Positions 8,702 to 25,977 of a stretch of 25,977 bases of DNA are shown here, piece after piece. The stretch comes from Staphylococcus phage S-CoN_Ph34: sequence record OR354857.1, one strand, 5' to 3'. Both the position numbers and the translations under genes were made by a program. The notes beneath the pieces were generated by a model. The model saw only the letters and a program-made list of their open reading frames with translations. It did no database searches and was not told the DNA's origin. Positions within the stretch are counted from its first letter, which is position 1. Each line of letters begins with the position of its first letter.

Positions 8702-9116
8702 CTTTATCTACTTCTTTCATCGGTTTATTGTCACGACTACGAATGACTTTTAATTTTTCACCTATTTCTTCGGGAATCAGAACCCCCATTTCTGCACAGT
8801 TTTCAACAATAGATAATCCCTCATTCGCTATATAGAAAAAGATTGTTACCATTAATAAACCATTGTTTAGATTTAATATTTGGTCAATGATATTTGCTAA
8901 AATGATAATACAGAAAATGAGTATTTTACGACCAAATCCATACATGCTTTTTCTACTCCATAAATTTTTATTTTTAAAGGCTTTAGCTAAACCTGTAATA
9001 ATATCAATTAACATTAATACCATTAAAAAATACAGTAATTTTATATCACCTGCATATATAAATGTGTGAAAAGCGTCAGTTTGTGTATATTGTACGTGTA
9101 ATTCACCTTTTTCCAT
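8694..9116 (-). CDS. Holin (two TM segments, charged C-terminus)
   Basis: Hydrophobic segments LLYFLMVLMLIDIITGL and ILIFCIIILANIIDQIL, acidic/basic C-terminal tail. Immediately upstream of lysin genes. Confidence 0.65.
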   Translation of the reverse strand: MEKGELHVQYTQTDAFHTFIYAGDIKLLYFLMVLMLIDIITGLAKAFKNKNLWSRKSMYGFGRKILIFCIIILANIIDQILNLNNGLLMVTIFFYIANEGLSIVENCAEMGVLIPEEIGEKLKVIRSRDNKPMKEVDKDE

Positions 9117-9125
9117 TTTTTAAAC

Positions 9126-9470
9126 CTACTTTCTAAATTTATTTTTAAATACATTTTGTGCCATTGGATTGTTTGTTCCGTCGTTATGCCAAAATCTGAC
9201 ACCCGTTTCAAGTAATACTTTTAACTGTTCTAAAAGCATAGGGTCGATACCGTCAATAGTATATGTACCTCTCATTCTTAAATAATTGCATACCGTCCAT
9301 GAATCAATTGGGAATGGTGTTCCTGCTTGGTCATTAGTTTCAAAACCTAACATGAAATAATAACGTTTAATATTATCCATGTCGAAGGGCGCTGGTACAC
9401 CAATTTTCATGGTTAATCCATTAATACTATTTGCGATTTGGAACGCATTTCCCATTTGTGAACTTGTCAC
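9126..9470 (-). CDS. Tail knob protein (phi29 gp9-like), C-terminal fragment
   Basis: Adding one C in C4 run (G4 on + strand, 9475-9478) fuses it to 9467-10270 as ..LQPPTVTSSQMGNAF.. Confidence 0.65.
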   Translation of the reverse strand: MTSSQMGNAFQIANSINGLTMKIGVPAPFDMDNIKRYYFMLGFETNDQAGTPFPIDSWTVCNYLRMRGTYTIDGIDPMLLEQLKVLLETGVRFWHNDGTNNPMAQNVFKNKFRK

Positions 9471-10270
9471 AGTAGGGGTTGTAATGCTAAGTCTTTATAT
9501 TCTGCACGTAATTCTTTATAGTAATTATACTCATCATTAAATTTTGAAAATAAAGCCGTTGGTGAAAGGTTTGACCCAATGCTTACAGCGTCATAAAATC
9601 TTGATTTCAAATCATTACCACCCACAACATTATTGATTCTGCTAGATATTAAATTACTTTGTGCATTTTTTTGTTTGTTGGCTTGTTGAGATTGTGCAAG
9701 TAATCCATTATCAATTAAAATAGGTACTTCTGCAAAACTATCAAACGTGATAGCCGTATTTAAAAATGAACCTGTATCAATCAATATTGAATTATCACTT
9801 GCTTGTATTGGTTTTTCATTGGGTGCGCTATTATAGTCAACGGGATAAATACGTACCTCATTATGATAACCAATAATAGATTTTGTTCTTAACTTAACCC
9901 CTGTTTTTTCTGTTATTTTTCCTGCGTCAAGTAATAAACTGTCACCATTCCATGAATATATTTCAATCGTTAAATATTCATTTCTCACTAAATGTTTTAA
10001 TTCATCTTGATTAGCATTAATCATATATTGTAATCTTTCAAAAGGTACACGTAATTCTTTTAATTCCCATTCATTCGATAACTTTTCATTTTTTAGTGTC
10101 ATTAAACCTTTAATATCTTCTTGTGTTTTGACTGCTTCTAAATCATCAATATTAATAAATGTAGCAGGTATTAAAATAATTTTTTGAAAGTTTTGCGTAA
10201 TCCATGGATATTTACTCATTTTATCCATAAATTCGTTAAAGTCTTTACGATTCATCACATACAGATTCAC
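9467..10270 (-). CDS. Tail knob protein (phi29 gp9-like), central fragment
   Basis: Contiguous with flanking fragments. The three ORFs sum to 588 aa (phi29 gp9 about 600 aa). Confidence 0.65.
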   Translation of the reverse strand: MNLYVMNRKDFNEFMDKMSKYPWITQNFQKIILIPATFINIDDLEAVKTQEDIKGLMTLKNEKLSNEWELKELRVPFERLQYMINANQDELKHLVRNEYLTIEIYSWNGDSLLLDAGKITEKTGVKLRTKSIIGYHNEVRIYPVDYNSAPNEKPIQASDNSILIDTGSFLNTAITFDSFAEVPILIDNGLLAQSQQANKQKNAQSNLISSRINNVVGGNDLKSRFYDAVSIGSNLSPTALFSKFNDEYNYYKELRAEYKDLALQPLL

Positions 10271-10890
10271 TGGACTTGTAATGTAATCGTAAGTAATCCC
10301 TTTGATGATTCTAGGTTAGGCTCTTTTTTCGTACCAAACTTTTTAGATAAATCAGCACTTGATTGGAATAAAACAAGATTACCACCAAACTGTTCAAGAT
10401 AATTATTTAAATAGTATTTGTTACTTGCTTTAATAACATCATCGTTATTTCTAAGTGAGGGTAATAAATAATTGTAAACCTCACGTGGTAAATGTTGTCG
10501 TTCAATAAACGCATTTTGTACATTTGATAATACATTACCCTGTGTGTAAGTCATCACTGTATCAATCACTAAATACATTCGTGTAACATGGTCGTTGACA
10601 TACTCAATTTGATTCACAAACGCATAATAACGTCTATTTTCAAAATCAGATTTAAACGTACAATAATTAATCCCCTGTGCGTCTTGCCATGACATTTGTT
10701 CAAGATTCACCATGTTTCTATCACGTATAAAATTAAACGGAATATTTTTATAATCAATAGCATTAAAATGATTTTCATTTAAAAAATAGTTGTCACGTTC
10801 ATTGTTTGATGAAAAGTGAATTGTGTTTTGATAATCTGTCAGTGGTGTATTATAGAAAAATTTAAAATGTGTCAGTTTTCTATCTGCCAT
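10267..10890 (-). CDS. Tail knob protein (phi29 gp9-like), N-terminal fragment
   Basis: TDYQNTIHFSSNNERDNYF and RRYYAFVNQIEYVNDHVTRMYLVIDTVMTY resemble the phi29 gp9 N-terminus (NDYKNTRWF..., KWFYAFVTELEF...). Strong SD AGGAGG. Confidence 0.75.
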   Translation of the reverse strand: MADRKLTHFKFFYNTPLTDYQNTIHFSSNNERDNYFLNENHFNAIDYKNIPFNFIRDRNMVNLEQMSWQDAQGINYCTFKSDFENRRYYAFVNQIEYVNDHVTRMYLVIDTVMTYTQGNVLSNVQNAFIERQHLPREVYNYLLPSLRNNDDVIKASNKYYLNNYLEQFGGNLVLFQSSADLSKKFGTKKEPNLESSKGLLTITLQVQ

Positions 10891-10908
10891 AAAATAACCT
10901 CCTTATAT

Positions 10909-10938
10909 GTAAAAATAGACACGCTTTCACGTGTCTAT
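10909..10938 (-). terminator. Rho-independent terminator (- strand) between coiled-coil gene and tail knob
   Basis: 9-bp stem ATAGACACG/CGTGTCTAT, loop TGAAAG, then T5 on - strand. Confidence 0.5.
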
Positions 10939-10949
10939 TATATCATAAT

Positions 10950-11753
10950 TTAATCCATAAATACGGTATTAATTGGACACCACTCATCGCCTGTTGGACT
11001 AGGGTAGGTTGTTCCCTCAATAACAACATCACCTGCACGCATCACAGTCATTCTTGTGTAGTAAATTGAACCTGATTTTTTACTTGTATTTTGAACATAG
11101 TAATGTGGATTTGTGAACTGACCATTGATAGGTATTTTTCCTACTGTAATAGATTCACCTTTATACCCTTTTACTGCACCACGTAAAGCAACTGTTTTAA
11201 TGCCTTTTACGTTAGTAATTCGATATTGTGGTGGGTCGGTATGTGGTATTAACCCACTACCTGTGATTTTGATATTTTGCCAACCTGTATCTTCAATAGT
11301 AATACCATTGATTTTTTCCGTATTCGATTGAATTTTTTTATTTGTTTCTTCTATCTTTTCGTCTATCTTTTCGTTTAACGTTTTTTGTTCTTGTTTCAAT
11401 TCGTCGATATTAATGGAATCAATTTTTTGCTTCATTTCTTCTAAGTTGTAACTATTAAATTTTTCAGTAATTTCATTCACTTTTAATTTGTTATCTTCGA
11501 CAGATGTTTCAATGACTTTGATTTTTTCTTCATTATCATAAATACGTTTTTCATTGTCTGATAATTTTTCTTGTACTTCTTGCATTTCATCTTGTAGTGG
11601 TTCGATACTTTCTAAATGAAGAAATCCGTTTTTAGTGTAAATATAAACATCACCGTCAACGGTTGAACATATGTCATTTTCGTCAAGAAGATTTGTATTA
11701 AAATTTTGTAGGTTATAAATATCTTTGACACTTCTTACAAATTTACTTGCCAT
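10950..11753 (-). CDS. Structural protein with central coiled coil and globular C-terminal domain (tail spike/fibre-associated?)
   Basis: Heptad-like, E/K-rich central region. SD GGAGG. Confidence 0.45.
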   Translation of the reverse strand: MASKFVRSVKDIYNLQNFNTNLLDENDICSTVDGDVYIYTKNGFLHLESIEPLQDEMQEVQEKLSDNEKRIYDNEEKIKVIETSVEDNKLKVNEITEKFNSYNLEEMKQKIDSINIDELKQEQKTLNEKIDEKIEETNKKIQSNTEKINGITIEDTGWQNIKITGSGLIPHTDPPQYRITNVKGIKTVALRGAVKGYKGESITVGKIPINGQFTNPHYYVQNTSKKSGSIYYTRMTVMRAGDVVIEGTTYPSPTGDEWCPINTVFMD

Positions 11754-11758
11754 GTTTT

Positions 11759-12496
11759 TTAAACCTCCAATTTACCCCAAAGATGTTTTTCATTGAGTAT
11801 TTTTTCTTGTTTATCTTCAATTTTACCAATTGACATATAAAAACGGTTTTTACTAGCACCTTTTTGTTGATAGTAAAACCCTAACCACCAAAAACCATCT
11901 TTTTTATAAATTCTATCAAACTTAACGTATTGATTAGGATAAATCCAAGAATTTTTATCAACAATTTCACCTTTTAATGATGGTTCTAATCTCACACGAA
12001 TTGGACGTTTATTAGTTTTAAATGATGTAAATTTACCATTCCATTTATAAACGTTTTTGGGTTTGCTTTCTTTTCTAAAATGTGGACGAATAAAGTGTGT
12101 AACTCCGTCATAATAATGAACACGTTGTGTTGCTAATTCTTGATAGCTTCCACCTAAACCATTCCAATTTTGTTCAAGACATAAATAATAATTTAAATTA
12201 CCACTAATGACAATTTGAATATGACCGTATTCACTATATGCACCCTCAGTATAGACTGCAATATCACCAAATTGTGGTTTAAAATCACGTGTATTACGAT
12301 AAACCGTTGCTAAACCTTTCATATCATTTTTAATTGCGTCTTTTGCATTACCCCATAATCTTACTTGACCGTCTGTAATGTAATACATGTAATCAACTGC
12401 TAAATCAGCACATTGATAACCAAAACTACCGTCAAAATCAACGCCTACACCTGTATGTGTTTGAATATAGTGTCTAGCTTGCGACAATGTTTTCAT
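11759..12496 (-). CDS. Endolysin, CHAP peptidase + SH3b-like cell-wall-binding domain (P68 Lys16-like)
   Basis: CHAP Cys (GYQCADLAVDYMYY) and His (EYGHIQIV). C-terminal W/Y/K-rich ~90 aa. SD AGGAGG. Confidence 0.7.
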   Translation of the reverse strand: MKTLSQARHYIQTHTGVGVDFDGSFGYQCADLAVDYMYYITDGQVRLWGNAKDAIKNDMKGLATVYRNTRDFKPQFGDIAVYTEGAYSEYGHIQIVISGNLNYYLCLEQNWNGLGGSYQELATQRVHYYDGVTHFIRPHFRKESKPKNVYKWNGKFTSFKTNKRPIRVRLEPSLKGEIVDKNSWIYPNQYVKFDRIYKKDGFWWLGFYYQQKGASKNRFYMSIGKIEDKQEKILNEKHLWGKLEV

Positions 12497-12532
12497 TTTT
12501 GTTTCCTCCTTTAAATTAGGATAGGCAAACGC

Positions 12533-14362
12533 CTACCCTAGAATAATCAACCCTTTACTTGATAATGTTTGAGGGTCAACATTGGTAGAATATCCATGGT
12601 CTTTATCTGTAAATATCCTACTACCATTATACACGTTATAAACTGTTTTGTTACTAGATATGTTAGAACCAAAACAAGTAATTTCACCACCACGTGTTGC
12701 ATAAACGGGTTCATTTTTAGTACCACTAATATTTGACGCTTCGGCGAACACTTTAGACGCATAAGCTAAAATACCAAAGTCACCACTACCTGTGATTGTG
12801 ATTCTATCTGCAAATATTTGACCACCACGTGTGGCTTCAATCCCGTTACGACCTGCACGTTCAATCACTGCTTCATTAATAGAAATGACTGAACCATAAG
12901 CCAATACGTTATCATCTTTTGAACGTGAAACCTTTGCCCCGTACGCTGCGACATAACCACCACGTGTAGCTTCTAATCCACGACGACCATTTCCATCACA
13001 ATTAATCAATTGGCAATAAACATCACCTGCATAGGCAAGTACACCATTTCTTTTATTACCATTGGTTGTTGATAATCTTGCTTGAACTGTTGAACCATGT
13101 GTACATTGGATTCCGTCAAGTCCGTTTTCATTCGCATTACCACTTGTGAAATCCACTTTTGAGTTATTACTTGCTATGACACCATGCCATTTATTACGTG
13201 AAGCAGTTGCCCCTGTGGCGTCAATAGAACAACCCCTGTTTGCCATAATTCCACTTGCACCACAACCATTAGCAATGCCTTTATCAAAGTTAATGTTTGA
13301 TGAACGTGTCGCAATGACACCGTATGTTGTTTGTGAATTTGAACAATCACTACTTCTTAAATCAATATCACTTGACGCATAACTTACAACATTATCATCA
13401 ATTGTATCAGTGATTTTACAGTTTCTTGCACTCGCTTGTGAACCAGTTGTCACCATTAAACCATGGTGTCCGTTAAATCTTGCTTCGGTAAAATCAATAT
13501 AACCACTTGCACCATGTGAGAAGTGTATTCCAATTTCACCACAACGATTGACTGTCATATAATTACCTGTTAATGATGAATTAAAAATTCTTAATCCGTC
13601 ACCATACATATTTTGGTCTTTATTATATTCTTCTAATTGTTCACGATTACCATTGTACGAAAAATCACAATAGTTGGTTTGAATATGTGAACCATTGACA
13701 CCACATAAGCCAATAAAATTAAAGTGTGTAGAACCTCCACGTTCAGTCATTTCAAACGTTGTATTATCCATTAAGAAACCACAGTTAATACTATCTGAAA
13801 AATCTTTGTTTTGAAGTTTAAAATCAATTTTAGGGAATGTTGAATTAATTCCATAAAATAATGGTTTTACTCTAAAAATTGGATTTGTTTTTATTTCAAC
13901 TTGACGATTTAATTCAGTTTCATAGGCTTCAACAATATCATTTTCTGATGTAATCGTAATATGATTATAACGTTTATCACGTAAGAATAATTGTTCTCGC
14001 ATCATGTAATCTTTAAGTAAAATGACACGTATAGATTTTGGTTGAACAATTAAATTTTCAATGTAATCAAAACAATGATTCAATGTGTAAAAATCACCTT
14101 TTTGTCCTACTGTATATGTGACATCTGTATTTGATAACGTTAAAGCGTCGTATGTTTCTTTCATTTTTTGTATGTCATCTGCTAGTCCATTAACAAAATC
14201 ACATAATTCAAAAATAAAACCATTAAAACGTGCTAAGTAATCATAATATGATTTTGAATTGGTATTATAATCTGCATTATCACTGTAAAATGGTTCACGA
14301 TATATGCCACGACGATAACCATATTCATTATTATAGTTGATTCTACCGTTATTTATATACAT
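12533..14362 (-). CDS. Tail fibre / appendage protein with right-handed beta-helix repeats
   Basis: Repeated ..ATRGG.. / G-x-x-A-x-x-S turns in the C-terminal 350 aa (GLEATRGGYVAAYGAKVS, GIEATRGGQIFADRITI, VYATRGGEITCFGSNIS). SD GGAGG. Confidence 0.6.
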   Translation of the reverse strand: MYINNGRINYNNEYGYRRGIYREPFYSDNADYNTNSKSYYDYLARFNGFIFELCDFVNGLADDIQKMKETYDALTLSNTDVTYTVGQKGDFYTLNHCFDYIENLIVQPKSIRVILLKDYMMREQLFLRDKRYNHITITSENDIVEAYETELNRQVEIKTNPIFRVKPLFYGINSTFPKIDFKLQNKDFSDSINCGFLMDNTTFEMTERGGSTHFNFIGLCGVNGSHIQTNYCDFSYNGNREQLEEYNKDQNMYGDGLRIFNSSLTGNYMTVNRCGEIGIHFSHGASGYIDFTEARFNGHHGLMVTTGSQASARNCKITDTIDDNVVSYASSDIDLRSSDCSNSQTTYGVIATRSSNINFDKGIANGCGASGIMANRGCSIDATGATASRNKWHGVIASNNSKVDFTSGNANENGLDGIQCTHGSTVQARLSTTNGNKRNGVLAYAGDVYCQLINCDGNGRRGLEATRGGYVAAYGAKVSRSKDDNVLAYGSVISINEAVIERAGRNGIEATRGGQIFADRITITGSGDFGILAYASKVFAEASNISGTKNEPVYATRGGEITCFGSNISSNKTVYNVYNGSRIFTDKDHGYSTNVDPQTLSSKGLIILG

Positions 14363-14373
14363 ATTTTATCCTC

Positions 14374-15225
14374 CTACCATATGTGTAAAAAACATTCTTT
14401 ATCATATGTTTTAAATATTGTATCACGCATTGAATATAACTTTTGTAAGTTATCTATTAAGTATTGTTTTGTTAATCCTGTTCGTTTCATTTCATTTTGT
14501 GATTGTGTATTACGTTTTGTATCACTTTCACCGTTTCTTAATGAATCAAACGTATTATCTTTTGTACCTGTTTTTTCTGATACTGTTTCACTTGTATTTT
14601 TATCACGTGAAATCGTATTTGTGTCTGCATAATCAAGCACTGTATTATCTACATCAATATTTACTTGTGATTGTGGTAATGTAGATTCTGCAGTCCTATT
14701 ATCGTCAAAACTTTTTGTGATGGTATCTTCATAGTCTTTGTATTCTTCATGACCTTTGTCTTGTTGTCTGTCTTTGGTTTGACCTTGCTCGATTGCGTTT
14801 TCAATCGCTTTACCTAAGTCTTGTGATTGTGTATCTGTAACTTGTTCAATATATTTATACATATCTGAACCATAAACACGATAAATGTAATCTTCATGTG
14901 TCATTGTGATATACAAAACTTGACTTGCAAAGGCTTCAACCGTTTGTCTACCAATTTCACGATATAAAAAACGCAATGTAAAACTTTCTTTAAAATATCG
15001 GTCAATCCGTTCATCATTAAACATGAAACCTTTAAAAAAGATATTATCGACAATTTGTTTAACATCATCATCAAAATACAACATCTTTTGCATAAACGCA
15101 TGTTTTGAATCATTAAAGTGGATTCTATCATTATTAACAAATTCATTTAATCCCAAACGTTGTAATTCACTTTCAATAATTTCATATAACGTTGTTGTGT
15201 GTTTACTCAACTTTTCCACCACCAA
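14374..15225 (-). CDS. Putative lower collar protein (gp11-like by synteny); start uncertain (TTG/GTG)
   Basis: Lies between portal and fibre. Polar/acidic C-terminal region. Confidence 0.4.
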   Translation of the reverse strand: MVVEKLSKHTTTLYEIIESELQRLGLNEFVNNDRIHFNDSKHAFMQKMLYFDDDVKQIVDNIFFKGFMFNDERIDRYFKESFTLRFLYREIGRQTVEAFASQVLYITMTHEDYIYRVYGSDMYKYIEQVTDTQSQDLGKAIENAIEQGQTKDRQQDKGHEEYKDYEDTITKSFDDNRTAESTLPQSQVNIDVDNTVLDYADTNTISRDKNTSETVSEKTGTKDNTFDSLRNGESDTKRNTQSQNEMKRTGLTKQYLIDNLQKLYSMRDTIFKTYDKECFLHIW

Positions 15226-16210
15226 AATTATCAGTCTTTAAATTCATAATATCCATTTCAGAAATTGCCTCATCATCATAGTAAGGGTGAATATCTAAAT
15301 TAAAACGACGATTTAACATTTCAAAAGGGTTTCTACCTCTTAAATAAATATTACTATTTGATGTAGTAAATGAACGATTGGATTTAGCTTCCGTATCACT
15401 CACACCACTTTCTTTATCAACTGCAAGTGAGTTGACACCTAAGAAATTACTTAACTCACTGACTTTATTTTGATATTCTCGTTTCATTTCAACTAAAGCA
15501 GTAGTTACAAAATCACTACCCAAGTCAATAATATCTTCTTCAGGGTCAATGTATTTATCTGTCTTAATAAAAGGTGCACCATTATACAATTTATTAATAA
15601 AATGATTAATCGTTTCATCTTGAATATCAGATAAAAATATTTTACTAAATTTAGACTGCATAATAAGTGAAAAGCGAGATAATATAATTTCAGCTAATTC
15701 ATCACAATAATGTTCGATAATCTGATAATCATTATTTAAATTAACGGGTTTATTTCGTAATACAACAAAATCACCACTTTGGCAATTATCATAATATTCA
15801 ATTTCTAAAGCATAATCTGGTCTTAAATAATCAGGAATAATAAATGTGATGTCATCTTGAGTTAATCGTCTGTTAAAAGTTAAATTGAAGTTATTTATAA
15901 AATCGTTACTATTTTTATAATACATTGATTGGATATAGCCTAATATCATAATGACACCATTTCTAGCTTTACCAACTACAACTTGATAACCTTGTCTTAA
16001 TGCAATTTCAAGTTGTAAAAAATCAATACCAACTGAATTTTGATTTGTATAATTGATAAGCAATGGTAAAAATTCAACGTAACGATTAAAAATTAACCGA
16101 CGAAAACGGTTTCTATGTTCCATTATTCGTCGGTCAATATCTTCAGTCAATTCAACTTTTAAACCAACATCTTTATTTTTTCCGATGTAATCGTTATCCA
16201 AATAACTCAT
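15203..16210 (-). CDS. Putative portal / upper collar protein (gp10-like by synteny and size)
   Basis: 335 aa. SD AGGAGG. Sits between MCP and lower collar as in P68-like genomes. Confidence 0.45.
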   Translation of the reverse strand: MSYLDNDYIGKNKDVGLKVELTEDIDRRIMEHRNRFRRLIFNRYVEFLPLLINYTNQNSVGIDFLQLEIALRQGYQVVVGKARNGVIMILGYIQSMYYKNSNDFINNFNLTFNRRLTQDDITFIIPDYLRPDYALEIEYYDNCQSGDFVVLRNKPVNLNNDYQIIEHYCDELAEIILSRFSLIMQSKFSKIFLSDIQDETINHFINKLYNGAPFIKTDKYIDPEEDIIDLGSDFVTTALVEMKREYQNKVSELSNFLGVNSLAVDKESGVSDTEAKSNRSFTTSNSNIYLRGRNPFEMLNRRFNLDIHPYYDDEAISEMDIMNLKTDNFGGGKVE

Positions 16211-16230
16211 GGTTTAAAAGTCCTCCTTTA

Positions 16231-17481
16231 TTATTCTGTTTCACCTGCGTCAGGTTGTTCTTTTGGTGCTTCAGTAATTAATATTTTATTAAAGAAAGGT
16301 GACATAGCTTTGAATGAGTAATAATGAATCCAGTGTGTAACCTCATCAAATTCACCATTGTAAAATGGTTCTTTTAACATGCCTTTTGTATTACGTTTAT
16401 ATTTAAGTGCATTAATATCAAAAATAAACGCAAACAATTCACCCTGTGGCTTGATTTCTTCAATGTTTCCTTTAAATTCTTTTAAATCAGTTACATTAAA
16501 TGTAAATACTGAACCAGTAGGGATTACATCACCAATCATAGCTTGATAATCACCAAAGGCACGTAAATAATTGATTGTATCTTCATTTGCTAAAGTGACA
16601 TCTTTTGTTGTTTTATATACACCACCTAAATCATCAAAACTGATGATATGGTCTGTGAAGTCAATGCCTGCCATTTGGAAAGTATTCGCAATTTTTGTAT
16701 CAAGTAAATATGACTTAAGTGAATCAGTTGTTAAAATTGCAATATCACTTAATTTTGAAACAGTAGTATATTGACCTACTGAACCACCTGACGCTTTGTG
16801 TACTTCATTGTATTTTGCACTATTATTTTGCATATTTAAAATTGCTTCAAATACACGTTCTGTTAAATCTTCTTTTGATGAAGCAGTACGACGGTTTGAA
16901 TCTTGCAATTGATTAATTGCATAATCTACCATCATTGCACGTATTTCTTTTTCTTCTTGTACGTTAATATCAGAAATCTTTTTACGTAATACACCTAAAG
17001 CATAATTTGTAGCGTCACCTAAAGTTTGGAAATTAAAACGCACATCATTATTATTCAATGTGAATTTTTGTTTTTTAACGATACCACTACCATATAAACG
17101 TGTTGCCATTTGTGGGTAGTTACGTTTTAACATTAATTCTTCAGATTTTGACAAATTCATTTCAATTGGAATTGTATCCATAATGACATATTCTTCAGAA
17201 TATTGTCCTATAAAGTCCTGTTCTTTTGCTAACCAATTAAAACGATTTCCCAACGCAATATCAATCAATAATGTTTCGTTGATTTTAGGGAATAAGTATT
17301 TATTTACATATGTTTCAAACATTGTATTTACATTTGACCAATTCTCACCAAAAGTCCATTGCTTACCATAATCATGGTTAAAATCTTGCAATGACGCTTT
17401 TGTTGAATCATGGTCACGTAAATCAATGTACGGCTTTGGAAGGAAAATACTTGTATTTTGTATCATTATACTTGCGAACAT
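16231..17481 (-). CDS. Putative major capsid protein (416 aa)
   Basis: Size and position. First 18 codons are antisense to the truncated holin' copy. No SD at annotated start. Confidence 0.5.
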   Translation of the reverse strand: MFASIMIQNTSIFLPKPYIDLRDHDSTKASLQDFNHDYGKQWTFGENWSNVNTMFETYVNKYLFPKINETLLIDIALGNRFNWLAKEQDFIGQYSEEYVIMDTIPIEMNLSKSEELMLKRNYPQMATRLYGSGIVKKQKFTLNNNDVRFNFQTLGDATNYALGVLRKKISDINVQEEKEIRAMMVDYAINQLQDSNRRTASSKEDLTERVFEAILNMQNNSAKYNEVHKASGGSVGQYTTVSKLSDIAILTTDSLKSYLLDTKIANTFQMAGIDFTDHIISFDDLGGVYKTTKDVTLANEDTINYLRAFGDYQAMIGDVIPTGSVFTFNVTDLKEFKGNIEEIKPQGELFAFIFDINALKYKRNTKGMLKEPFYNGEFDEVTHWIHYYSFKAMSPFFNKILITEAPKEQPDAGETE

Positions 17482-17662
17482 TATTGACCAAATTTTAAAT
17501 TTAAATAGTGGATTACTTATGATTACTATTTTTTACTATATTGCGAATGAAGGTCTTTCAATTGTTGAAAACTGTGCAGAAATGGGTATTTTAATTCCTG
17601 ATGAAATAGGTGAAAAATTAAAAGTAATCCGAAATAATGATAAGGGTGATAAACATGAATGA
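17426..17662 (+). pseudogene. Truncated holin copy (lacks N-terminal ~58 aa including TM1); overlaps MCP start antisense
   Basis: MYGFGRKILVFCIIILANIIDQ.. aligns with residues 59-140 of holin 8694-9116. Confidence 0.7.
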
Positions 17663-18425
17663 TACAATGAAAAAATATATCCATTCTAAAATCAATGATG
17701 ATTTTGAATTATCTGTTGATGATGTAGCCAAACATGTAGGGGGTTATGGTCGTTTTAATGCGTGGCTTGGTGGTAATCAGTCAAGAATTAAAGAGGTATT
17801 GAATGCAGTTAAAAATGCAGGTGTGTCACCTGCCTTTTTTGCTAGTTATGAATGCGGTGAGGGGTATAATGGTTCTTGGGGTTGGTTAAACCATACATCA
17901 CCACAAGGCAACCCCGTACAAGACGCAATAGCGGTATGTAATTGGATTAAATCCCAATCAACAAAAGTCGCACAACCTGCATGGATCGACTATGCAAACT
18001 ATAAAGACTTTGTACCTGCAAGCGTTAAGAGAGAGGGGAATAAAGACGCACAAAACTTACCCTCAAACGCGATTGGTCGTGTTGTGATTAGTGGTACGGC
18101 GGCTGCAACTTGGGAGGTTTATTATCCTCAAGGGTTATCACCTGCATATAATGGTGTACAACAATACGGTAAACCAATCACAGAACAATATAAACGTATA
18201 CTTTCTTGGGGTGGAAAAATTGACGGAAAAGGTGGGTCGTCTGGGGTGTCATCTGGTTCATCTTCAGGAGGGTCACCCCTTGACCTCATTAAAAAAGCGT
18301 TTGAAAGTTTCTTAAATAAGTTAGAAGAATCTATGAAATGGGACTTGCATTCTATTGGTACTGATAAATTTTTTCAAATCAGATGTTTACGATTACAAAA
18401 ACTTATAATAATACCTATCGTTTAA
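17655..18425 (+). CDS. Putative cell-wall hydrolase (amidase-like) paralogue
   Basis: SD AAGGGTGA 5 nt upstream of ATG 17655. Same Gly/Ser linker and C-terminal overlap with CHAP' frame. Confidence 0.45.
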   Translation: MNDTMKKYIHSKINDDFELSVDDVAKHVGGYGRFNAWLGGNQSRIKEVLNAVKNAGVSPAFFASYECGEGYNGSWGWLNHTSPQGNPVQDAIAVCNWIKSQSTKVAQPAWIDYANYKDFVPASVKREGNKDAQNLPSNAIGRVVISGTAAATWEVYYPQGLSPAYNGVQQYGKPITEQYKRILSWGGKIDGKGGSSGVSSGSSSGGSPLDLIKKAFESFLNKLEESMKWDLHSIGTDKFFQIRCLRLQKLIIIPIV

Positions 18426-18427
18426 AT

Positions 18428-19059
18428 ATGAACGCTAAACTATTAGATGAAATGCGTGATTTAATGAATAGCATTGACGGGGGAGTGGTAAAGATACGGG
18501 TGCAGATGATAACGATAAACATTCAGGTGGTAAATCTGTAGCACCTAACGGAAAAAGTGGGCGTGTCATTGGTGGTAACTGGACATATGAAACCTTACCG
18601 AAAAAATATAAAGATGCTATTGATGTACCTTTATTTAAAAGAAGTTATTTGAATAATAGCGGGAATACATTCCCTAGGTTTGGTAATACAGGACAATGTA
18701 CCGAATTAACACAATGTTATATGACACAACTACATGGAAAAGTCCAACCTGCCGACGACGGACAGATTACCAACGGTCAGAGAGTATGGGTAGTCTATCA
18801 TAATAGAGGTGCACGAATTACTCACCGTCCTACCGTAGGTTATGGATTCAGTAGTAAACCCCCTTATTTACAGGCGGCGTTACCAGGTGTTGGTCATACG
18901 GGGGTTGTGGTTGCTGTATTTGATGATGGATCATTCTTAACTGCAAACTTTAACGTTCCACCGTACTGGGCTCCTAGTCGTGTTGTTGAATATGCTTTAA
19001 TTGACGGTGTACCTAAAAATGCAGGGGATAATATCATGTTTTTTAGTGGTATAAAATAA
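18428..19059 (+). CDS. CHAP-domain peptidase paralogue (frame-disrupted at G5 run 18479-18483)
   Basis: MNAKLLDEMRDLMNSIDGG then, with +1 G, SGKDTGADD..GRVIGGNWTYETLPKKYKDAIDVPLFKRSYLNNSGNTFPRFGNTGQCTE.. Catalytic Cys/His in 18649-19059. Confidence 0.7.
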
Positions 19060-19157
19060 ATTTTATGCTATAATTAAAGTATGTTAGGAAACTAGCAAAT
19101 AAAATAACAAAACATAATCCGTATGAGGTGCAACAAACCTCACTACACCTTAAAAAA

Positions 19158-19190
19158 AACGCAACTTATTCATTTAAGTTGCGTTTTTTA
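19158..19190. terminator. Bidirectional terminator between CHAP' and pol'
   Basis: 10-bp stem AACGCAACTT/AAGTTGCGTT flanked by A8 and T6. Pol' stop inside stem. Confidence 0.6.
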
Positions 19191-21459
19191 TATCTTGATG
19201 AACCATATACAGAATATTTATATCACATTTGTTTTTAATTTTAAATGTGTAGGGAAATAAATCACTTAATGAAAATGCACCGACATCACTTTCAATATAT
19301 AAAATATCATCATCATTCACATCATCATATTCTTGACGTGCTTGTTTTAATATTTCATTCTTGCGATGTTCTAATTGGTTCGTGAAATAAAAATCATACG
19401 GTGAACCTTTTTCTATATATGTTTTTGAGGGGTATATAGAAATGGTTCTTTGTTCATTATATATTGATTTGTTGTTATATACAATAGCTTTATGATGAAA
19501 ATCGTTTTTAATAAAATCTTTAAAAATTTGATTTGTATTAAAAGCGTTTAATGGTATGCCTGCACTTGCTATTTTAATTGTATCATCTTCTTTTTGGTAA
19601 GCGTACTTTTTATGATTGAGTACATACATTTGTTTAATCACATCGTTTTCTATATCCCACTTTCCTAATGCAATTGGATCGAATAGATGAGGGTTTAACT
19701 TGTGTTTGATTTTTGACTTTAAATATAAACTGTCCGTATCGCAATATATAAAACATTCATCTATTTCAGATTGGGTTAATGATTGCAACGGTTCAAGTAG
19801 ATTATAAAGGGCTTGTGATGTAACAAAAGTAGAAAATAATAAATTGCGTTCACTGTTTTTATATCCATTCACATGATTGATTAAAAAATCATCTTCATCA
19901 CGTCTGAACAAATTAAAATGTGAACGTAATGCAGGAATGCCATATAAACCATTTAAAACAACCTTACTTAACATAATTTCTTCATTTGAATAGGTATGTG
20001 TATTCACTTCATCAGTGATTGTGTAATCATAGGGTGAATTCATAATGATTTTTTTGTTTAATTTACCTTGTGTTTTAATGAAATAATTATCATGTATAAT
20101 ATCACGAGCACCAAAATACTCACATTCATATTGCACATATGCAAACACTTGTAAGGTGTCAAAAGTTAAACCCGTAATATCTTGAATCATGCGTAAAGTG
20201 TTTGTATTTATATTAACAAACTTTTTATCATTATTGTAGTATTTAACTAAACATTGTTTAATAATATCACTTTCAATATAACGTAATACCTTTTTATTGA
20301 ATGTTACTTTATCAACTTTATACAAACTGAAAAAATCTTTATTATCTAATTCAATATTAATTGTTGTAGGTGCTTCAAATTCACCAAAATCATGGATATA
20401 CATCGGTATCTTTTCTTTATACATCACATAAGGGTAACTTGAATTAATATCAATTGAAAAACATTCATCACGAATGATTTGATCGACGTATCTTGAATTA
20501 TACATATTTAAACCACCACGATAGAAACCCTTAATGAAGTCATAATAATTCATATCAAAAAATGTAAAATCCGTGTAGGATATTTTTTGTTTACCTTTTT
20601 GATTAAGTAGTTGAAACCGTGTTTGTTCACTATTAATATAACTATTCATAATATTAACGCTAAATGTCATCGCATTATAATCAAAATTAGGGAATATATC
20701 AGAATAATGGATATGTGATTGACCTAGAATAATAACATCATTACGAATATAAGTCATTTGTTCATCATTCAGTTTTAAAAAACACTGATACGCATATTCA
20801 TAGGCTTGTTGGTCTGTCATATCATGTTCAACATCGAATATTTCATAATCAAAATCAGTTTTTAACTGGTCATCTGTTAAATATCCCCCGTCTTTGAGTT
20901 TTTTTCCTAATGTAGCGATTGATGTGTTGGTTTTCATAAAATTATCTATAATATTAAATTTAAAACCATTTAAAAACATAAGTAAATCTAAATTAATACT
21001 TGATTTGACACGTTTTTCAAGTATCACATTTTTTTCTTTTGCGAGTAGCTTTGCTTCATTGATATTTATGGCATTGCTATTATCGTCTGCACTTTTCATG
21101 TATAAATTTTCTATTTCTACATCATCTAAATGTTGAATTAAATCATGTAGTAAGAAATGATTATCATATTTATTACAGTTATGTGCGATCATTGTAATGG
21201 TTGTCTTTGATTTTGTGATTGTGTCACGGCGTTTTGCGTATGTGAAAAAGGTATCAAAAAACACTTTAAAACTTGGGAATACTTCAACATCTATCACGCC
21301 GTTATTATTCCAACCAATCGCAACACTGTAAGTTACATTTTTATATTTCGTTGGTTTTTCTCTACCTGCTACTTTATTATAATTTAATGTTTCAATATCC
21401 CAATATAATATTAAATCTTTTTGACCTTTATTCACTTTCATAGCGTCCAATAATCCCAT
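19174..21459 (-). CDS. Protein-primed family-B DNA polymerase (intact, 761 aa)
   Basis: All exonuclease and polymerase motifs as listed for the left copy. SD TGAGGTG. Confidence 0.95.
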   Translation of the reverse strand: MGLLDAMKVNKGQKDLILYWDIETLNYNKVAGREKPTKYKNVTYSVAIGWNNNGVIDVEVFPSFKVFFDTFFTYAKRRDTITKSKTTITMIAHNCNKYDNHFLLHDLIQHLDDVEIENLYMKSADDNSNAININEAKLLAKEKNVILEKRVKSSINLDLLMFLNGFKFNIIDNFMKTNTSIATLGKKLKDGGYLTDDQLKTDFDYEIFDVEHDMTDQQAYEYAYQCFLKLNDEQMTYIRNDVIILGQSHIHYSDIFPNFDYNAMTFSVNIMNSYINSEQTRFQLLNQKGKQKISYTDFTFFDMNYYDFIKGFYRGGLNMYNSRYVDQIIRDECFSIDINSSYPYVMYKEKIPMYIHDFGEFEAPTTINIELDNKDFFSLYKVDKVTFNKKVLRYIESDIIKQCLVKYYNNDKKFVNINTNTLRMIQDITGLTFDTLQVFAYVQYECEYFGARDIIHDNYFIKTQGKLNKKIIMNSPYDYTITDEVNTHTYSNEEIMLSKVVLNGLYGIPALRSHFNLFRRDEDDFLINHVNGYKNSERNLLFSTFVTSQALYNLLEPLQSLTQSEIDECFIYCDTDSLYLKSKIKHKLNPHLFDPIALGKWDIENDVIKQMYVLNHKKYAYQKEDDTIKIASAGIPLNAFNTNQIFKDFIKNDFHHKAIVYNNKSIYNEQRTISIYPSKTYIEKGSPYDFYFTNQLEHRKNEILKQARQEYDDVNDDDILYIESDVGAFSLSDLFPYTFKIKNKCDINILYMVHQDIKNAT

Positions 21460-21502
21460 AGTCTACACCTCAATCACCTATATTATAGCATAAGCAAAAA
21501 CT

Positions 21503-22762
21503 TTACGCATTAAATATAAATGATTTTTCAAGATATTTTTTAGTTCTCTCTATATAGTTATCTTGAAACATTTTTTCTTGACGATTAAAGTGGTTATAAC
21601 CGTTTTTCTTACGTTCATTTTTTAAATGATACATGATGATTTTGTTCATATTTAAATAGATATATTGTTCTTCATTTAATATAAATGATTTACTATAAGC
21701 ATTATCAAAATGTAAGTTGCTAGGGTTATAGTAGCGTTTGGGGTGGTTTTCTTTATAAAATGAATCTTTTAAAAATATTGCATTTTTTTCTACATCACTA
21801 ACATCGGTACAAAATTGATAATTATCAGAATAGGGTACGACTTTAATATTCGTTTGATAATCACCTAAATGATACATCACTTTAATAAAATTCATTGGGG
21901 TTTTAATATAGAAAAAGTTACCGTTTTTATTGATATGTTTTCTTAAACCGTCATCTGCTAAATTAAAGGTATTAAAATCAAATTCACCCGTTGTCATACT
22001 ATCTTCTTTTGAATTAAAAGCACGGGTATTTCTTTTTTCGTTTGAATACTCATTACGTCGCATTTCTAAAAGTATATTATTATATTCCCGTTTCTGGTTC
22101 ATGGCATGTTTTGAATGATGTTGGAGTTGTTCATATATATTTAAATTCGCGAGTAGGGGACTAGAAAAGTTTACGGCATTACCTAATAAAAAGATTTTAG
22201 GTATTTTCAAATAATCAATATTACCGTGGTTTCGGTCAATACTTTCATAAATGGTTTTTAACTTTTCCCACTCGTCAATCAAATAGTCACTTTCTAATGC
22301 TAAAAACTCATCATATATAATAATAGGGAAGTTTTTCATAAAGTTTGAATGATATTTTAAATCAGTTGCATTATTGAGATGTGTTATGATACCAATTTCT
22401 TTTTCACCATAACCTACTGCAATATAATCTTGTGTGTTTCTAAAAAATAAGTTATGATCATTAAAATGTTTTTGTTCAATACAAATACGTTCTAATAATT
22501 CACGGTACGCATCACGCAATGTATGGTGTCTTGCGAGTAATGTAAATTTTATATTAAATTCAATCGCTAATTTCATAAAAAACGCAATATAGTTGAATGT
22601 TTTACCGTCAGAACGGTTTGAAATAGATATGTAGAAATCAAGTTCTGTATTCATCAAATGGTCAACAAGTTCAATCTGGTTATATTGTTCAGGTATGGAT
22701 TTTCTAAACTTAGTAACAAAGTTTTGAAATTCCTTAATTTCTGTCATTCTTGATTTTTTCAC
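21503..22762 (-). CDS. DNA encapsidation ATPase (intact, 419 aa from GTG start)
   Basis: Walker A/B motifs. GTG start after AAAGGTGA aligns with left-copy MKKSRLNEV. Confidence 0.85.
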   Translation of the reverse strand: MKKSRMTEIKEFQNFVTKFRKSIPEQYNQIELVDHLMNTELDFYISISNRSDGKTFNYIAFFMKLAIEFNIKFTLLARHHTLRDAYRELLERICIEQKHFNDHNLFFRNTQDYIAVGYGEKEIGIITHLNNATDLKYHSNFMKNFPIIIYDEFLALESDYLIDEWEKLKTIYESIDRNHGNIDYLKIPKIFLLGNAVNFSSPLLANLNIYEQLQHHSKHAMNQKREYNNILLEMRRNEYSNEKRNTRAFNSKEDSMTTGEFDFNTFNLADDGLRKHINKNGNFFYIKTPMNFIKVMYHLGDYQTNIKVVPYSDNYQFCTDVSDVEKNAIFLKDSFYKENHPKRYYNPSNLHFDNAYSKSFILNEEQYIYLNMNKIIMYHLKNERKKNGYNHFNRQEKMFQDNYIERTKKYLEKSFIFNA

Positions 22763-22819
22763 TTTTATCACCTTTTTTCTGGTAATGATTAATAATATCT
22801 TGAACGGTTTCAAACATTA

Positions 22820-23311
22820 TTATTTTACCTTTCTTGTGTAGAACACAATGTTATAATTCACTTTTCTTTGATTTTCTATATCGTTGACTTTTGTTGCGTC
22901 AGCAAGTTCATCAAATAAAGCATTTGCCGATTTAATAAAATGTGACATTTCTTGTGACCCGTCATTGTCTTTCACTGCTTCTTGGAATAAATGACGTTTG
23001 TGCATGTTCCCTTTTTGTTCCCAATCATAATCCAGTTGCTTATATATATTTTCAATATGTGTGAGTTCTTTTTGGTTTTTACCACTCACTAAACTTTTAG
23101 CGTCTATATACGTCACTTTTTTAGGTTTAGGTAGGGACACTTTACCTTTAGAAACAAACGTTTGATTGAAGTGGTTATATTCATTAATGTATTCTTTTTG
23201 TAATGCTTCATCATCAAAAAGAAAAACAAACCCATCACGTTGATAGGTTGTCTTGTTTTTCGTTGTTGTATTTCTAAACGCATTAGATCGTGATATTTTA
23301 TTGTTTTTCAT
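22820..23311 (-). CDS. Hypothetical basic 163-aa protein (paralogue of 3003-3515)
   Basis: ORF; about 75% identical to left copy. Confidence 0.55.
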   Translation of the reverse strand: MKNNKISRSNAFRNTTTKNKTTYQRDGFVFLFDDEALQKEYINEYNHFNQTFVSKGKVSLPKPKKVTYIDAKSLVSGKNQKELTHIENIYKQLDYDWEQKGNMHKRHLFQEAVKDNDGSQEMSHFIKSANALFDELADATKVNDIENQRKVNYNIVFYTRKVK

Positions 23312-23313
23312 AC

Positions 23314-24549
23314 TTATACACCCTCATCAAAAAATTCATAGTATTGTTGGATTAACTTATAATAAATCATTTCGTGTCCCCACTTCGTAGGGTGTAAACC
23401 GTCTTTCATAGACGAGTGTCTAAACGATTCATCATAAGGTTTAATTAAAGGGTCGGTATACGCATTATATAACGCCACGTTTAAACGTTTCGCTTCACTT
23501 ACTTGTGCAGTTACGTAATCATTTAATGATAAACCTTTTTTATTTTTATCTGTATCGCGACGAATGACCTCACCACTCGCATTAACTTTTGCTTGTTTCG
23601 TTGGTGTCATCACAATGATTTTTACATCTTTGTTTTGTTGTCTAATATTAGTAATGATTTCTTTCATTGCCCCGATATACGTATCATTTTTAGAATCATG
23701 TTGACCGATTTCTACACCGTCACCCTTTAACCAATCATCATCAGTACCTTGTACAATCACTAAATCTTTATTTTTGATTTGTTTTGATTGGTTAATCATA
23801 TTATTGTCTGAATTTGTTGAATAGGTTGCACTACTTTCTGCAACATTTTCAACATTAATATTGAGTTTCTCTCTAAACATATCGCCAAAGTTTTGTGATG
23901 CGTGTGACCCTTTAGCAACACTATCACCAATAATACCAATACTTTTAATATTTCTTATTGATGAAATAGGGGTGTAATCTTGCATAACTGTTCCGTTTAA
24001 CGTCTTAACTGTTTTTACAGTCGGAATTTTTTTATTGTCAGGTTGTTTTTTATTTTTATCTGGTTTTGTTTGAGATTGTTCACCACCTGGATATGACCCA
24101 CTTGCACGTTTAATATCATATACTTTTTTATTTTGGTTTGCTTCATATTCAAACGTTTTATATTGATATTGGTCTATAAGTTTACCGTCTTTATAAATCA
24201 ATATATGTGAATCATCATCATTAATTAACCAAATATCTGATGTTGTATTTAAAAATAATAAATCCTTAATCGCTATATTTTGATGTTCACGATAATTGTT
24301 ATAAATATCTTTTTCTAAAAAGTGAGAAATAGGGGAATCCATTGTAATCTCAATTTCATCTTCAATATTAAATAAATCATTTTTATTAATAATATATGTT
24401 TTCGTTACTGCACCATTATCAAAAATAACATAAGACCCGTTATTACTTGAATACTTTTTATTTTTAATATCGTGTTTCCAAACATATTCAACTAATTCAT
24501 TTAAGTGTAACTTTAACTGATGTTTAATTATCAAAGTATTTTCCCTCAC
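23314..24549 (-). CDS. Two-domain protein with C-terminal SGNH/GDSL hydrolase (esterase) domain, intact 411 aa
   Basis: GDSVAKGSHAS, QGTDDDW, DGLHPTKWGH. N-terminal ~190 aa domain of unknown function. Confidence 0.6.
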   Translation of the reverse strand: MRENTLIIKHQLKLHLNELVEYVWKHDIKNKKYSSNNGSYVIFDNGAVTKTYIINKNDLFNIEDEIEITMDSPISHFLEKDIYNNYREHQNIAIKDLLFLNTTSDIWLINDDDSHILIYKDGKLIDQYQYKTFEYEANQNKKVYDIKRASGSYPGGEQSQTKPDKNKKQPDNKKIPTVKTVKTLNGTVMQDYTPISSIRNIKSIGIIGDSVAKGSHASQNFGDMFREKLNINVENVAESSATYSTNSDNNMINQSKQIKNKDLVIVQGTDDDWLKGDGVEIGQHDSKNDTYIGAMKEIITNIRQQNKDVKIIVMTPTKQAKVNASGEVIRRDTDKNKKGLSLNDYVTAQVSEAKRLNVALYNAYTDPLIKPYDESFRHSSMKDGLHPTKWGHEMIYYKLIQQYYEFFDEGV

Positions 24550-24764
24550 TTTCTAAATCATTGAGAATATCCGTAATATCATCAAGTGCATTTTCTAATG
24601 CTAAATTTTGTTCTTCTGTTAAATCGTATTCATTTAACGCGTTTACAATTAAATAGTATGCCTTAATCAATTTCAATCTTATCTACTCCATTCACTAATG
24701 AAACTAATGTTATTGACATTATACCATAGAATATTAAAAACGATGTGACGATAACCCCAAACAT
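24524..24764 (-). pseudogene. Small membrane protein paralogue, frame-disrupted (33-aa TM fragment 24663-24764 + out-of-frame remainder)
   Basis: MFGVIVTSFLIFYGIMSITLVSLVNGVDKIEID* then +1 frame LIKAYYLIVNALNEYDLTEEQNLALENALDDITDILNDLESEGKYFDN*, both matching 1529-1774. Confidence 0.55.
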
Positions 24765-24780
24765 ATATAGACCTCCTCAT

Positions 24781-24806
24781 AATAAAGAGGGGATAAAACC
24801 CCTCTA
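24781..24806 (-). terminator. Rho-independent terminator after SSB' gene
   Basis: GAGGGG-ttttat-CCCCTC followed by TTTATT on - strand. Confidence 0.5.
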
Positions 24807-24819
24807 TTTAAATTTTTAT

Positions 24820-24904
24820 TTAAAATGGTAAATCATCATCAGTAATTTCAATTGGCCCATTAGCACGATCGAACGGGTTACGTCGCTCGTTTTCTACTTT
24901 TTTT
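24820..24904 (-). other. +1-frame extension encoding SSB-type tip (ENERRNPFDRANGPIEITDDDLPF*) after A7 run (T7 at 24898-24904 on + strand)
   Basis: Read directly; mirrors the left-arm arrangement. Confidence 0.55.
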
Positions 24905-25282
24905 GCTATCTACCTCAACATTATCACTTGCTACAATATTGATTGATACAGATGTACGATTGTATTTTTTAGATGTAAATTCATAAATTTCAAACGCAAG
25001 TTCACGATTGTTAATAGCTTCTGTGACTTCATTATCTGAACGCATTTCCTCAATCATTTCTGTTAAATGGTTAGGTAGATTAACAAAGTAGTTTTCAATG
25101 ACAATAACCCCTTGATTACCAAATTTTCCTTTTGTGTTGATAAATAATGCTTCAATTGTATATTTTTTATCTTGTGGTAATTCTGCTAATTTAATGAAAT
25201 CACGTTCTTTTTCATTATCGTAATCATATTGTGGTGATCCACCATTTGAATATTTGTTTAAAATGTTATTTAAGTTTGTCAT
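24878..25282 (-). CDS. Putative SSB paralogue (134 aa in annotated frame)
   Basis: Collinear with 755-1195. Annotated frame ends ..SKKSRKRAT* inside the conserved GAGCGACGTAACCCGTTCG motif. Confidence 0.5.
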   Translation of the reverse strand: MTNLNNILNKYSNGGSPQYDYDNEKERDFIKLAELPQDKKYTIEALFINTKGKFGNQGVIVIENYFVNLPNHLTEMIEEMRSDNEVTEAINNRELAFEIYEFTSKKYNRTSVSINIVASDNVEVDSKKSRKRAT

Positions 25283-25298
25283 TTTTGTTTTCTCCTTT

Positions 25299-25514
25299 TT
25301 ATTTAGAAATTTTTAATAGTTCATCATAATTAACTGTAATTGTTTTCTTTGAACGTTTTGAATCAATTAATGTATGTGATTCTGGAATATGTTTCATCAT
25401 TTCAGTTTTTGAAATTCTGTAATCTTGCTTAGGGATAAAAAAGTCATATTTTTCACCAACATCATTATGACAATAAAGGGTGAATCCTTTAATATCTAAA
25501 TCAATATAATTCAA
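25299..25514 (-). CDS. Hypothetical early protein (71 aa), paralogue of 525-740
   Basis: ORF; conserved. Confidence 0.65.
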   Translation of the reverse strand: MNYIDLDIKGFTLYCHNDVGEKYDFFIPKQDYRISKTEMMKHIPESHTLIDSKRSKKTITVNYDELLKISK

Positions 25515-25529
25515 GTGACCACCTCCATA

Positions 25530-25802
25530 CTAAAATATGTGTACATCGTAATTTTGGTAAAAACCTTTATAAAAATTCCATTGTTCTAATCCGTCATCAC
25601 CTGCTAAATATTTAAGCAATGATTTGTTTTCTGTCTCGTCATTTAAAAATTGAATCACTTGGTCGTTATAATTAATTAAAAGTTGTTGACATGCAACTAA
25701 CATAGTATCTGCATTTTCTGATTTAAAATAATCATTCCATTTTTTCAATTCATTAAATAAACTTAACATTTCCGTATAGCCTTGTGCTTTTTCTTCACTC
25801 AC
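25530..25802 (-). CDS. Hypothetical early protein (~90 aa), paralogue of 205-477
   Basis: GTG start after AGGAGGTG. Shared LVACQQLLINYND and YLAGDDGL blocks. Confidence 0.6.
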   Translation of the reverse strand: MSEEKAQGYTEMLSLFNELKKWNDYFKSENADTMLVACQQLLINYNDQVIQFLNDETENKSLLKYLAGDDGLEQWNFYKGFYQNYDVHIF

Positions 25803-25831
25803 TTTTAACACCTCCTTGATTTGTTATATCT

Positions 25832-25860
25832 AATATATCATGTGCGTAAAAACTTTGCAA
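25832..25860 (-). promoter_or_regulatory. Early sigma-A-type promoter (TTGCAA-17-TATATT) reading inward from right terminus
   Basis: Revcomp contains TTGCAA, 17-nt spacer, TATATT. Counterpart of 146-174. Confidence 0.5.
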
Positions 25861-25910
25861 TAGTTTTATGAAAATTGTTGAGTAAATTTTACACCTTTAA
25901 AAATAATTTT

Positions 25911-25931
25911 ATCGCCAACGGCGATTTTTTG
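25911..25931 (+). other. Perfect hairpin ATCGCC-aac-GGCGAT followed by T6, just inside right terminal motif
   Basis: Seen directly. No equivalent hairpin at left end. Confidence 0.4.
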
Positions 25932-25957: not shown

Positions 25958-25977
25958 AAATATTACAAAAAAAATTC

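Follow-up and report, generated by a model that had tools for sequence, protein, structure and literature searches.

The stretch of DNA analysed here, referred to below as the window, is the 25,977 bp record of Staphylococcus phage S-CoN_Ph34 (OR354857.1), in which all genes are Andhravirus genes in their usual local order. At the locus of interest, the minus strand carries an open reading frame (ORF) of 416 aa for the major capsid protein at 16231-17481, which reads MFASIMIQNTSIFLPKPYIDLRDH followed by DSTKASLQDF..., and its start is overlapped on the opposite strand by an ORF of 78 aa (17426-17662, plus strand) that belongs to a truncated holin gene. A second holin gene, intact and encoding 140 aa, is located on the minus strand at 8694-9116 (phrog_199, E = 4.6e-28, residues 6-135). 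The window as a whole forms a diverged inverted repeat, in which positions ~1-8945 pair with 17426-25977 in 24 blocks of 70-85% complementarity, with holin positions 8728-8945 pairing with 17426-17643 (I10) at 78% complementarity. There is no self-match of at least 90% identity in the window, the arms being only ~80% alike.

Comparison with deposited phages by megablast revealed that the window is composed of two segments, each matching a different deposited Staphylococcus phage. Positions 3-17409 correspond to positions 16-17426 of S-CoN_Ph33 (OR354856.1) with 99.83% identity (3 mismatches and 19 gap openings), and positions 17410-24092 correspond to 10748-17426 of S-CoN_Ph36 (OR354859.1) with 99.93% identity (1 mismatch and 4 gap openings). 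When the region 16200-18500 alone was searched in the same way, 16200-17409 was 100% identical to Ph33 (1210 nt) and 17410-18500 was 99.9% identical to Ph36 (1091 nt), and no deposited phage record was found to cross the join; a two-sided match of this kind to two different phages is far beyond chance. The Ph33-derived segment (1-17409, plus orientation), which includes the intact holin gene, runs from the natural left terminus to a point only 793 nt before the right terminal repeat of Ph33. The Ph36-derived segment (17410-25977, plus orientation) consists of Ph36 10748-17426 followed by ~1.9 kb absent from the Ph36 record; it leads from inside the holin gene to the natural left terminus of Ph36 and is inverted relative to the Ph33 segment. 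Its portion beyond the end of the Ph36 record (24093-25977) shows ~70-78% identity with the Ph33 left-end genes and reaches a natural genome terminus, with the terminal motif CCACCGACCCAGATAC at its far end.

The window differs from the Ph33 segment in 29 alignment columns, mostly short indels, and from both parents in 34 columns overall. Because these differences are nearly all short indels, many of them in homopolymer runs or short repeats, they appear to represent the error pattern of an unpolished nanopore consensus, that is, sequencing noise and not divergence. Duplication or inversion within a single genome was rejected as a source of the two arms, since these are only ~80% alike, and the identity of each to its own, different parent phage is 99.8% or more. 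A previous reading of the DNA without database searches (the sequence-only reading) had taken this locus as the place where an inverted arm was attached; a join is indeed located here, but the arm is a piece of a second phage, Ph36, and not a rearranged part of one genome.

Three-way comparison of the window with Ph33 17397-17457 and Ph36 10718-10778 resolved the junction to a single base, with identity to Ph33 stopping at 17409 (...TTGTTGAATC) and identity to Ph36 starting at 17410 (ATGGTCACGT...). At the breakpoint Ph33 itself goes on as ...GAATC/TGCAATT and the Ph36 sequence is preceded by ...GAATTT/ATGG, so that no base on either side of the join is common in register to both parents and the join is blunt. 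The motif GAAT occurs near the join in both parents, out of register, and therefore cannot yield the observed junction sequence; both collapse of the assembly on a shared k-mer and recombination through microhomology were rejected on these grounds. A search for Oxford Nanopore (ONT) adapter and barcode-flank motifs, using motif sequences from general knowledge, detected none at the join or at the contig ends, and thus no remnant that would mark concatenated reads. The breakpoint postulated by the sequence-only reading is accordingly real, as is its illegitimate (non-homologous) character, but it sits 16 nt further to the left than had been proposed.

Regarding the capsid gene, the genuine part of the ORF comprises 16231-17409 on the minus strand and corresponds to codons 14-405 and the stop codon of the Ph33 capsid gene, the translation being identical from DSTKASLQDF... 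onwards. The remaining 72 nt (17410-17481, minus strand) constitute a spurious leader of 24 codons, MFASIMIQNTSIFLPKPYIDLRDH, which is antisense to the Ph36 holin gene and stands in for the true 13 residues MADKKKDIPTLIA with which the Ph33 major head protein (405 aa, Ph33 16248-17465) begins; the Ph36 capsid protein starts with MAENKDIGSLIADTS... The leader arises because no stop codon interrupts the frame on the strand antisense to the Ph36 holin ahead of an ATG. The antisense holin had previously been suggested as the source of the capsid start, with a contribution of 56 nt or 18 codons; the antisense origin holds, while the extent is 72 nt or 24 codons.

Profile and homologue searches are consistent with this division of the ORF. 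Residues 25-410 matched the major head protein family phrog_2006 in PHROGs (E = 1.2e-131), with the profile entered at position 23, and residues 1-24 matched an unrelated family without assigned function. Beyond its leader the protein is thus a genuine member of the phrog_2006 family of picovirus capsid proteins, but the ORF does not give a full-length match since the conserved N-terminal segment is missing. A tblastn search with the 24-residue leader gave 100% identity to Ph36 10748-10819, antisense to the holin; the matches listed lay in holin genes of staphylococcal picoviruses, again on the opposite strand, or at the equivalent position in records without a holin annotation. With the first 90 residues of the ORF as query, tblastn detected capsid homologues in 156 phage records from Staphylococcus, Enterococcus, Streptococcus, Lactococcus and other hosts. 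In 60 rows sampled evenly down the ranking of these 156 records, the alignment began at window residue 25-30, with the exception of one weak extension to residue 15, and none of the 60 aligned from residue 1. Homologues sharing the first 18 residues would have spoken against an N-terminus created by the join, and the sampled rows contain none. The similarity begins at residue 25, however, and not near the internal Met54, the position that had been given as a possible start of conservation. A lineage-specific capsid N-terminus was rejected both on the absence of residue-1 alignments in the sampled rows and on the match of the leader, among the hits listed, to antisense holin sequence or its equivalent position.

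Similarly, the expression signals of the capsid gene are lacking at its apparent start. No Shine-Dalgarno sequence precedes the ATG at 17481 (...aaaatttggtcaata ATG), as had been noted before, whereas in Ph33 and Ph36 the true capsid start has a GGAGG-type site (taggaggag or aaggagga) 7-8 nt upstream. The number of promoter-like matches in 17200-17900 (5, vs 4.3 +/- 1.9 in shuffled sequences) was at chance level, in agreement with the reported absence of a late promoter, and a promoter in 17482-17640 driving the capsid gene was therefore rejected. With a foreign leader and no ribosome-binding site, the N-terminus and the expression signals of this ORF were rightly held to be suspect.

The right-hand holin copy represents the 3' part of the Ph36 holin gene (17411-17662, plus strand; codons 54-136 and the stop codon, WSRKSMYGFGRKIL...GDKHE*). 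Global alignment showed no difference from residues 54-136 of the Ph36 holin (100% identity) and paired the fragment with residues 53-134 of the left holin (8694-9116). The intact Ph36 gene encodes 136 aa (Ph36 10590-11000) and is cut by the breakpoint within codon 53. The right-hand copy matched the holin family phrog_199 (E = 3.6e-15) at profile positions 56-134 only; it is not a complete picovirus holin with three hydrophobic segments, the first transmembrane segment (TM1) being missing. By hydropathy TM1 lies at approximately residues 25-45 and the fragment begins at W54 of the Ph36 holin, which bears out the loss of TM1 claimed from the sequence. That the copy is truncated at its 5' end was likewise correctly recognized, although homology reaches 17410/17411, corresponding to a loss of the first 53 codons, and does not begin at residue 59 as had been stated; the latter figure arose because the first in-frame ATG of the fragment (M58) is at 17426. 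The 78-aa ORF that starts at this ATG was also considered as a naturally short holin or a dual-start product. This was rejected, as identity to Ph36 extends 16 nt upstream of the ATG and halts abruptly at the join, and the same gene in Ph36 itself encodes the 136-aa holin.

Upstream of the Ph33 capsid gene lie two small genes encoding 63 aa and 108 aa, beyond which comes the right end of the genome. Neither of the two had a significant match anywhere in the window by tblastn (best E = 1.0), confirming that the upstream genes near the head gene are missing, as had been remarked previously. Two small conserved capsid-upstream genes and a right terminus are present in Ph33, Ph36 and the IMG/VR contig L005; the window is without the right 820 nt of the Ph33 record, which hold the two small genes and the terminal repeat (121 nt, 100% identical), and has half of a second genome, inverted, instead. 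At each outer end of the window there is a left-terminus repeat motif, C-rich and followed by CCCAGAAAC or CCCAGATAC, so that the contig stops only at natural dead ends.

In gene content and local gene order the window resembles the normal Andhravirus genomes of the Rountreeviridae, such as Andhra (NC_047813), Ph33 (OR354856) and Ph36 (OR354859), and its left 17.4 kb are essentially the Ph33 genome. The Andhravirus cluster was described as ~18 kb (PMC11001980). At 25,977 bp the window differs from the unit genome of this group, which is linear, ~17-18.5 kb long and bounded by short, near-identical inverted terminal repeats. The records deposited for Ph33 and Ph36 in the same study are normal genomes of ~18 kb, the capsid gene being intact in Ph33 and the holin gene in Ph36.

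Ph33, Ph34 and Ph36 were sequenced in a single study on the ONT MinION (R9.4.1) with native barcoding and a ligation kit, and the reads were processed with Guppy 4.5.4 and Flye 2.9.2, without polishing by short reads (PMC11001980). S-CoN_Ph34 was deposited as a complete genome and rated by CheckV as high quality and 100% complete (PMC11001980). Examination of sibling records revealed comparable structures. Positions 1-1446 of the Ph36 record are the exact reverse complement of its own 1628-3073, and this appended piece abuts the natural right terminus, with the terminal motif beginning at 1447. In the record of Ph31 (OR354854, 19,197 bp), positions 18309-19197 repeat 3243-4131 of the same record exactly, in reverse complement, and are attached just after the terminal repeat. 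Three Andhravirus records of this study (Ph34, Ph36 and Ph31) thus have additional inverted sequence at natural termini or close to them, a pattern that would fit an assembler extending through chimeric reads where ordinary reads stop.

Taken together, these observations point, with a probability of roughly 0.9, to the window being a technical chimera of two Andhravirus phages that are identical within nanopore error to Ph33 and Ph36. The join is most likely a chimera of the library or the assembly because the arm comes from the separately deposited Ph36, which stems from the same nanopore-only study as Ph33. Collinearity with independent references to the single base, absence of homology at the join, and a chemistry and pipeline prone to chimeras are all found here. 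A nearly complete Ph33 genome would have been joined blunt-end to a Ph36 fragment reaching from mid-holin to the left terminus, and the chimeric molecule or read would have arisen before barcoding, during preparation of the nanopore library by ligation. Flye may then have followed the chimeric read into the contig, because close to the terminus of a short linear genome ordinary reads dead-end and a chimeric read alone allows further extension. The capsid ORF would thereby have lost its real first 13 codons, its ribosome-binding site and the two upstream genes, with gene callers then extending it through 24 antisense-holin codons to a fortuitous ATG, and a holin copy without its first 53 codons would be the second outcome of the join. 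The odd start of the capsid gene and the cut holin are therefore probably artefacts and not features of a living phage.

For nanopore libraries prepared by ligation, one report puts chimeric reads at 1.7% or more (White et al. 2017, PMC5600009), and another gives 0.18-7.33% for inverted-repeat chimeras, with rates above those of rapid (transposase) kits (Xie et al. 2026, PMC13141652). The window resembles the chimeras described in these reports in that fragments are joined end to end, often inverted, with no homology at the join and with the same library chemistry, and sibling records of Ph34 show comparable inverted self-chimeras. It differs in that its parts come from two phage genomes and in that the chimera persisted into a deposited 'complete genome'. 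Against the technical reading, a clean, adapter-free junction is equally expected of an in vivo recombinant, and a physical chimera formed before barcoding requires DNA of both phages in one tube; the sources listed for Ph33, Ph34 and Ph36 are foot, face and leg samples (PMC11001980), which for a chimera of this type implies a mixed lysate or cross-contamination.

Within the technical reading, a fragment physically ligated before barcoding and then used by Flye for extension seems the most probable route. The alternative is that the join is purely computational, resulting from concatenation of reads by the basecaller or from a merge by the assembler via shared sequence, with no physical chimeric molecule. 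In silico chimerism has been described for nanopore data (PMC5600009), and barcode cross-talk (PMC6156371) could have put Ph33 and Ph36 reads into the Ph34 bin. Concatenated reads normally retain adapter or barcode sequence between their parts, however, and since no adapter remnant is present concatenation is less likely than physical ligation; collapse of the assembly graph on a repeat cannot explain the join because the parents share no in-register sequence there. This route is accordingly regarded as unlikely.

A biological origin was also considered, in which the window is a product of co-infection formed in vivo by an inter-phage template switch during protein-primed replication, yielding a 26-kb hybrid of two 80%-identical staphylococcal picoviruses with two left ends. 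The polymerase would have started from the left end of Ph33, switched at Ph33 17426 onto Ph36 10748 and run to the Ph36 left end, and the product would be a replication-competent but unpackageable, defective replicon with two left-end origins that was sequenced from unpackaged DNA. Polymerase strand switching in protein-primed replicons is known from the defective particles of adenoviruses and from phi29-type replication, where it gives large inverted repeats. Like such defective genomes, the window would have the same type of origin at both ends and a switch point in its interior; their arms, in contrast, are identical and derived from one template, while those of the window are ~80% alike overall (70-85% complementary) and belong to two phages. 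The terminal-repeat motifs at both ends of the window as possible protein-primed origins, the clean junction without adapter sequence, and the polarity of the segments (left end to internal, then internal to left end), which would be expected of a single strand switch, are in favour of this view.

Several observations nevertheless make an in vivo switch very improbable. There is no microhomology at the switch point, also in distinction from the strand-switch genomes. The length amounts to 142% of the unit length in a phage group of ~18 kb; capsid capacity limits the genome length that can be packaged, so that the hybrid would be too long to package, a further difference from the strand-switch genomes. 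A rare by-product should not dominate an assembly, and the hybrid would have to have been abundant. The inverted pieces on the natural termini of Ph31 and Ph36 are explained more simply by end-joining in vitro. Finally, the junction was seen nowhere else in the collections searched: the 32-mer spanning it was absent from three public collections of viral, metagenome and genome contigs, the 416-aa chimeric protein was not on record in public collections, and no independent occurrence of either was found in public assemblies. A control search with the uninterrupted Ph33 sequence at this position found it in two IMG/VR contigs, one of which (18,098 nt) has the native gene order with a 405-aa capsid gene and ORFs of 66 aa and 108 aa upstream. 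Should the in vivo interpretation nonetheless be true, the window would exemplify a strand switch between two phages during protein-primed replication.

That S-CoN_Ph34 represents a real, viable phage, its inverted arms of 8.5 kb being diverged and carrying two sets of early/replication genes, as its deposition as a complete genome, the CheckV rating and the pairing of the arms along their entire length (~75-85% complementarity) might suggest, is effectively excluded, given that the two arms, apart from sequencing error, are identical to two different phages of normal size from the same study, that the sole capsid gene is without a conserved start, a ribosome-binding site and upstream genes, that the second holin is decapitated, and that the Ph33 right terminal repeat is missing from a genome far above the size of the genus cluster.

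On the technical reading, the value of the finding is practical and concerns data hygiene, its biological interest being low. The record OR354857 is labelled as a complete genome but seems to combine the sequences of two other phages with their own deposited records, and needs correcting; the capsid start, the second holin and the 26-kb size of Ph34 are unfit for use in comparative genomics, taxonomy, the building of protein families and training sets. More generally, when nanopore ligation reads are the only data used for assembly, short linear phage genomes are at risk of being extended past their natural ends via chimeric reads, and CheckV still rates such over-extended genomes as 'high quality, 100% complete'. 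Parts of OR354859 (Ph36) and OR354854 (Ph31) likewise appear to be misassembled, in both cases as appended inverted pieces.

Regarding the Ph36-derived segment, window 24093-25977 (1.9 kb) carries the left-end early genes and the terminus of a Ph36-type phage, a stretch absent from the Ph36 record, which ends at the equivalent of window 24092; merging that record with window 24093-25977 would give a Ph36 genome of approximately 17.9 kb. Reverse-complementing 1628-3073 of the Ph36 record (OR354859.1, S-CoN_Ph36) reproduces nucleotides 1-1446 of that record exactly, and the inverted piece of 1,446 nt, located at the record start, abuts the natural right terminus, with the terminal motif found from 1447. 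Because 1-1446 inversely repeats 1628-3073, the genes upstream of the capsid gene are present twice in the Ph36 record, and OR354859.1 looks misassembled at its 1-1446 end.

The record of S-CoN_Ph31 (OR354854.1, 19,197 bp), a phage of the same study, has a terminal repeat at 18162-18297, and its terminal 889 nt (18309-19197), added 11 nt past this repeat, match nucleotides 3243-4131 of the record exactly on the opposite strand; this terminal stretch looks like another appended chimeric piece. The Ph33 inverted terminal repeat (window 4-124; nucleotides 18099-18219 of the Ph33 record, OR354856.1), with the C-rich motif CACCCCACCCCCACCCAGAAAC, spans 121 nt, and its two copies in Ph33 are 100% identical. 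The bases beyond the 121-nt repeat differ both between the two ends of a record and between records, and the exact termini are therefore uncertain in these deposits.

The left DNA polymerase gene is broken in two in the window (4879-5478 and 5499-7172) and intact in Ph33, the split likely being caused by a one-base difference from the intact Ph33 gene in an A-run at window 5436. Conversely, the right polymerase copy (window 19174-21459, 761 aa) is intact in the window and split in the Ph36 record, probably through T-run indels at the equivalents of window 20899 and 21029. Homopolymer errors seem particular to each assembly. On the minus strand, window 12533-14362 contains an unbroken ORF of 609 aa where the Ph33 record annotates three CDS (12566-12781, 12785-12883, and 12884-14380), and here the window appears to have the better consensus of the two.

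The 24-residue peptide encoded antisense to the Ph36 holin gene (window 17410-17481, minus strand) matched phrog_29905, a family of unknown function (E = 1e-4), which may comprise spurious ORFs called antisense to picovirus holin genes. Within the ORF at 17637-18425 of the Ph36 segment, a perfect 7-bp hairpin (17817-17833, GCAGGTG-TGT-CACCTGC) with T-rich tracts on both strands was scored as a bidirectional terminator-like site (two such sites found, 0.2 expected).
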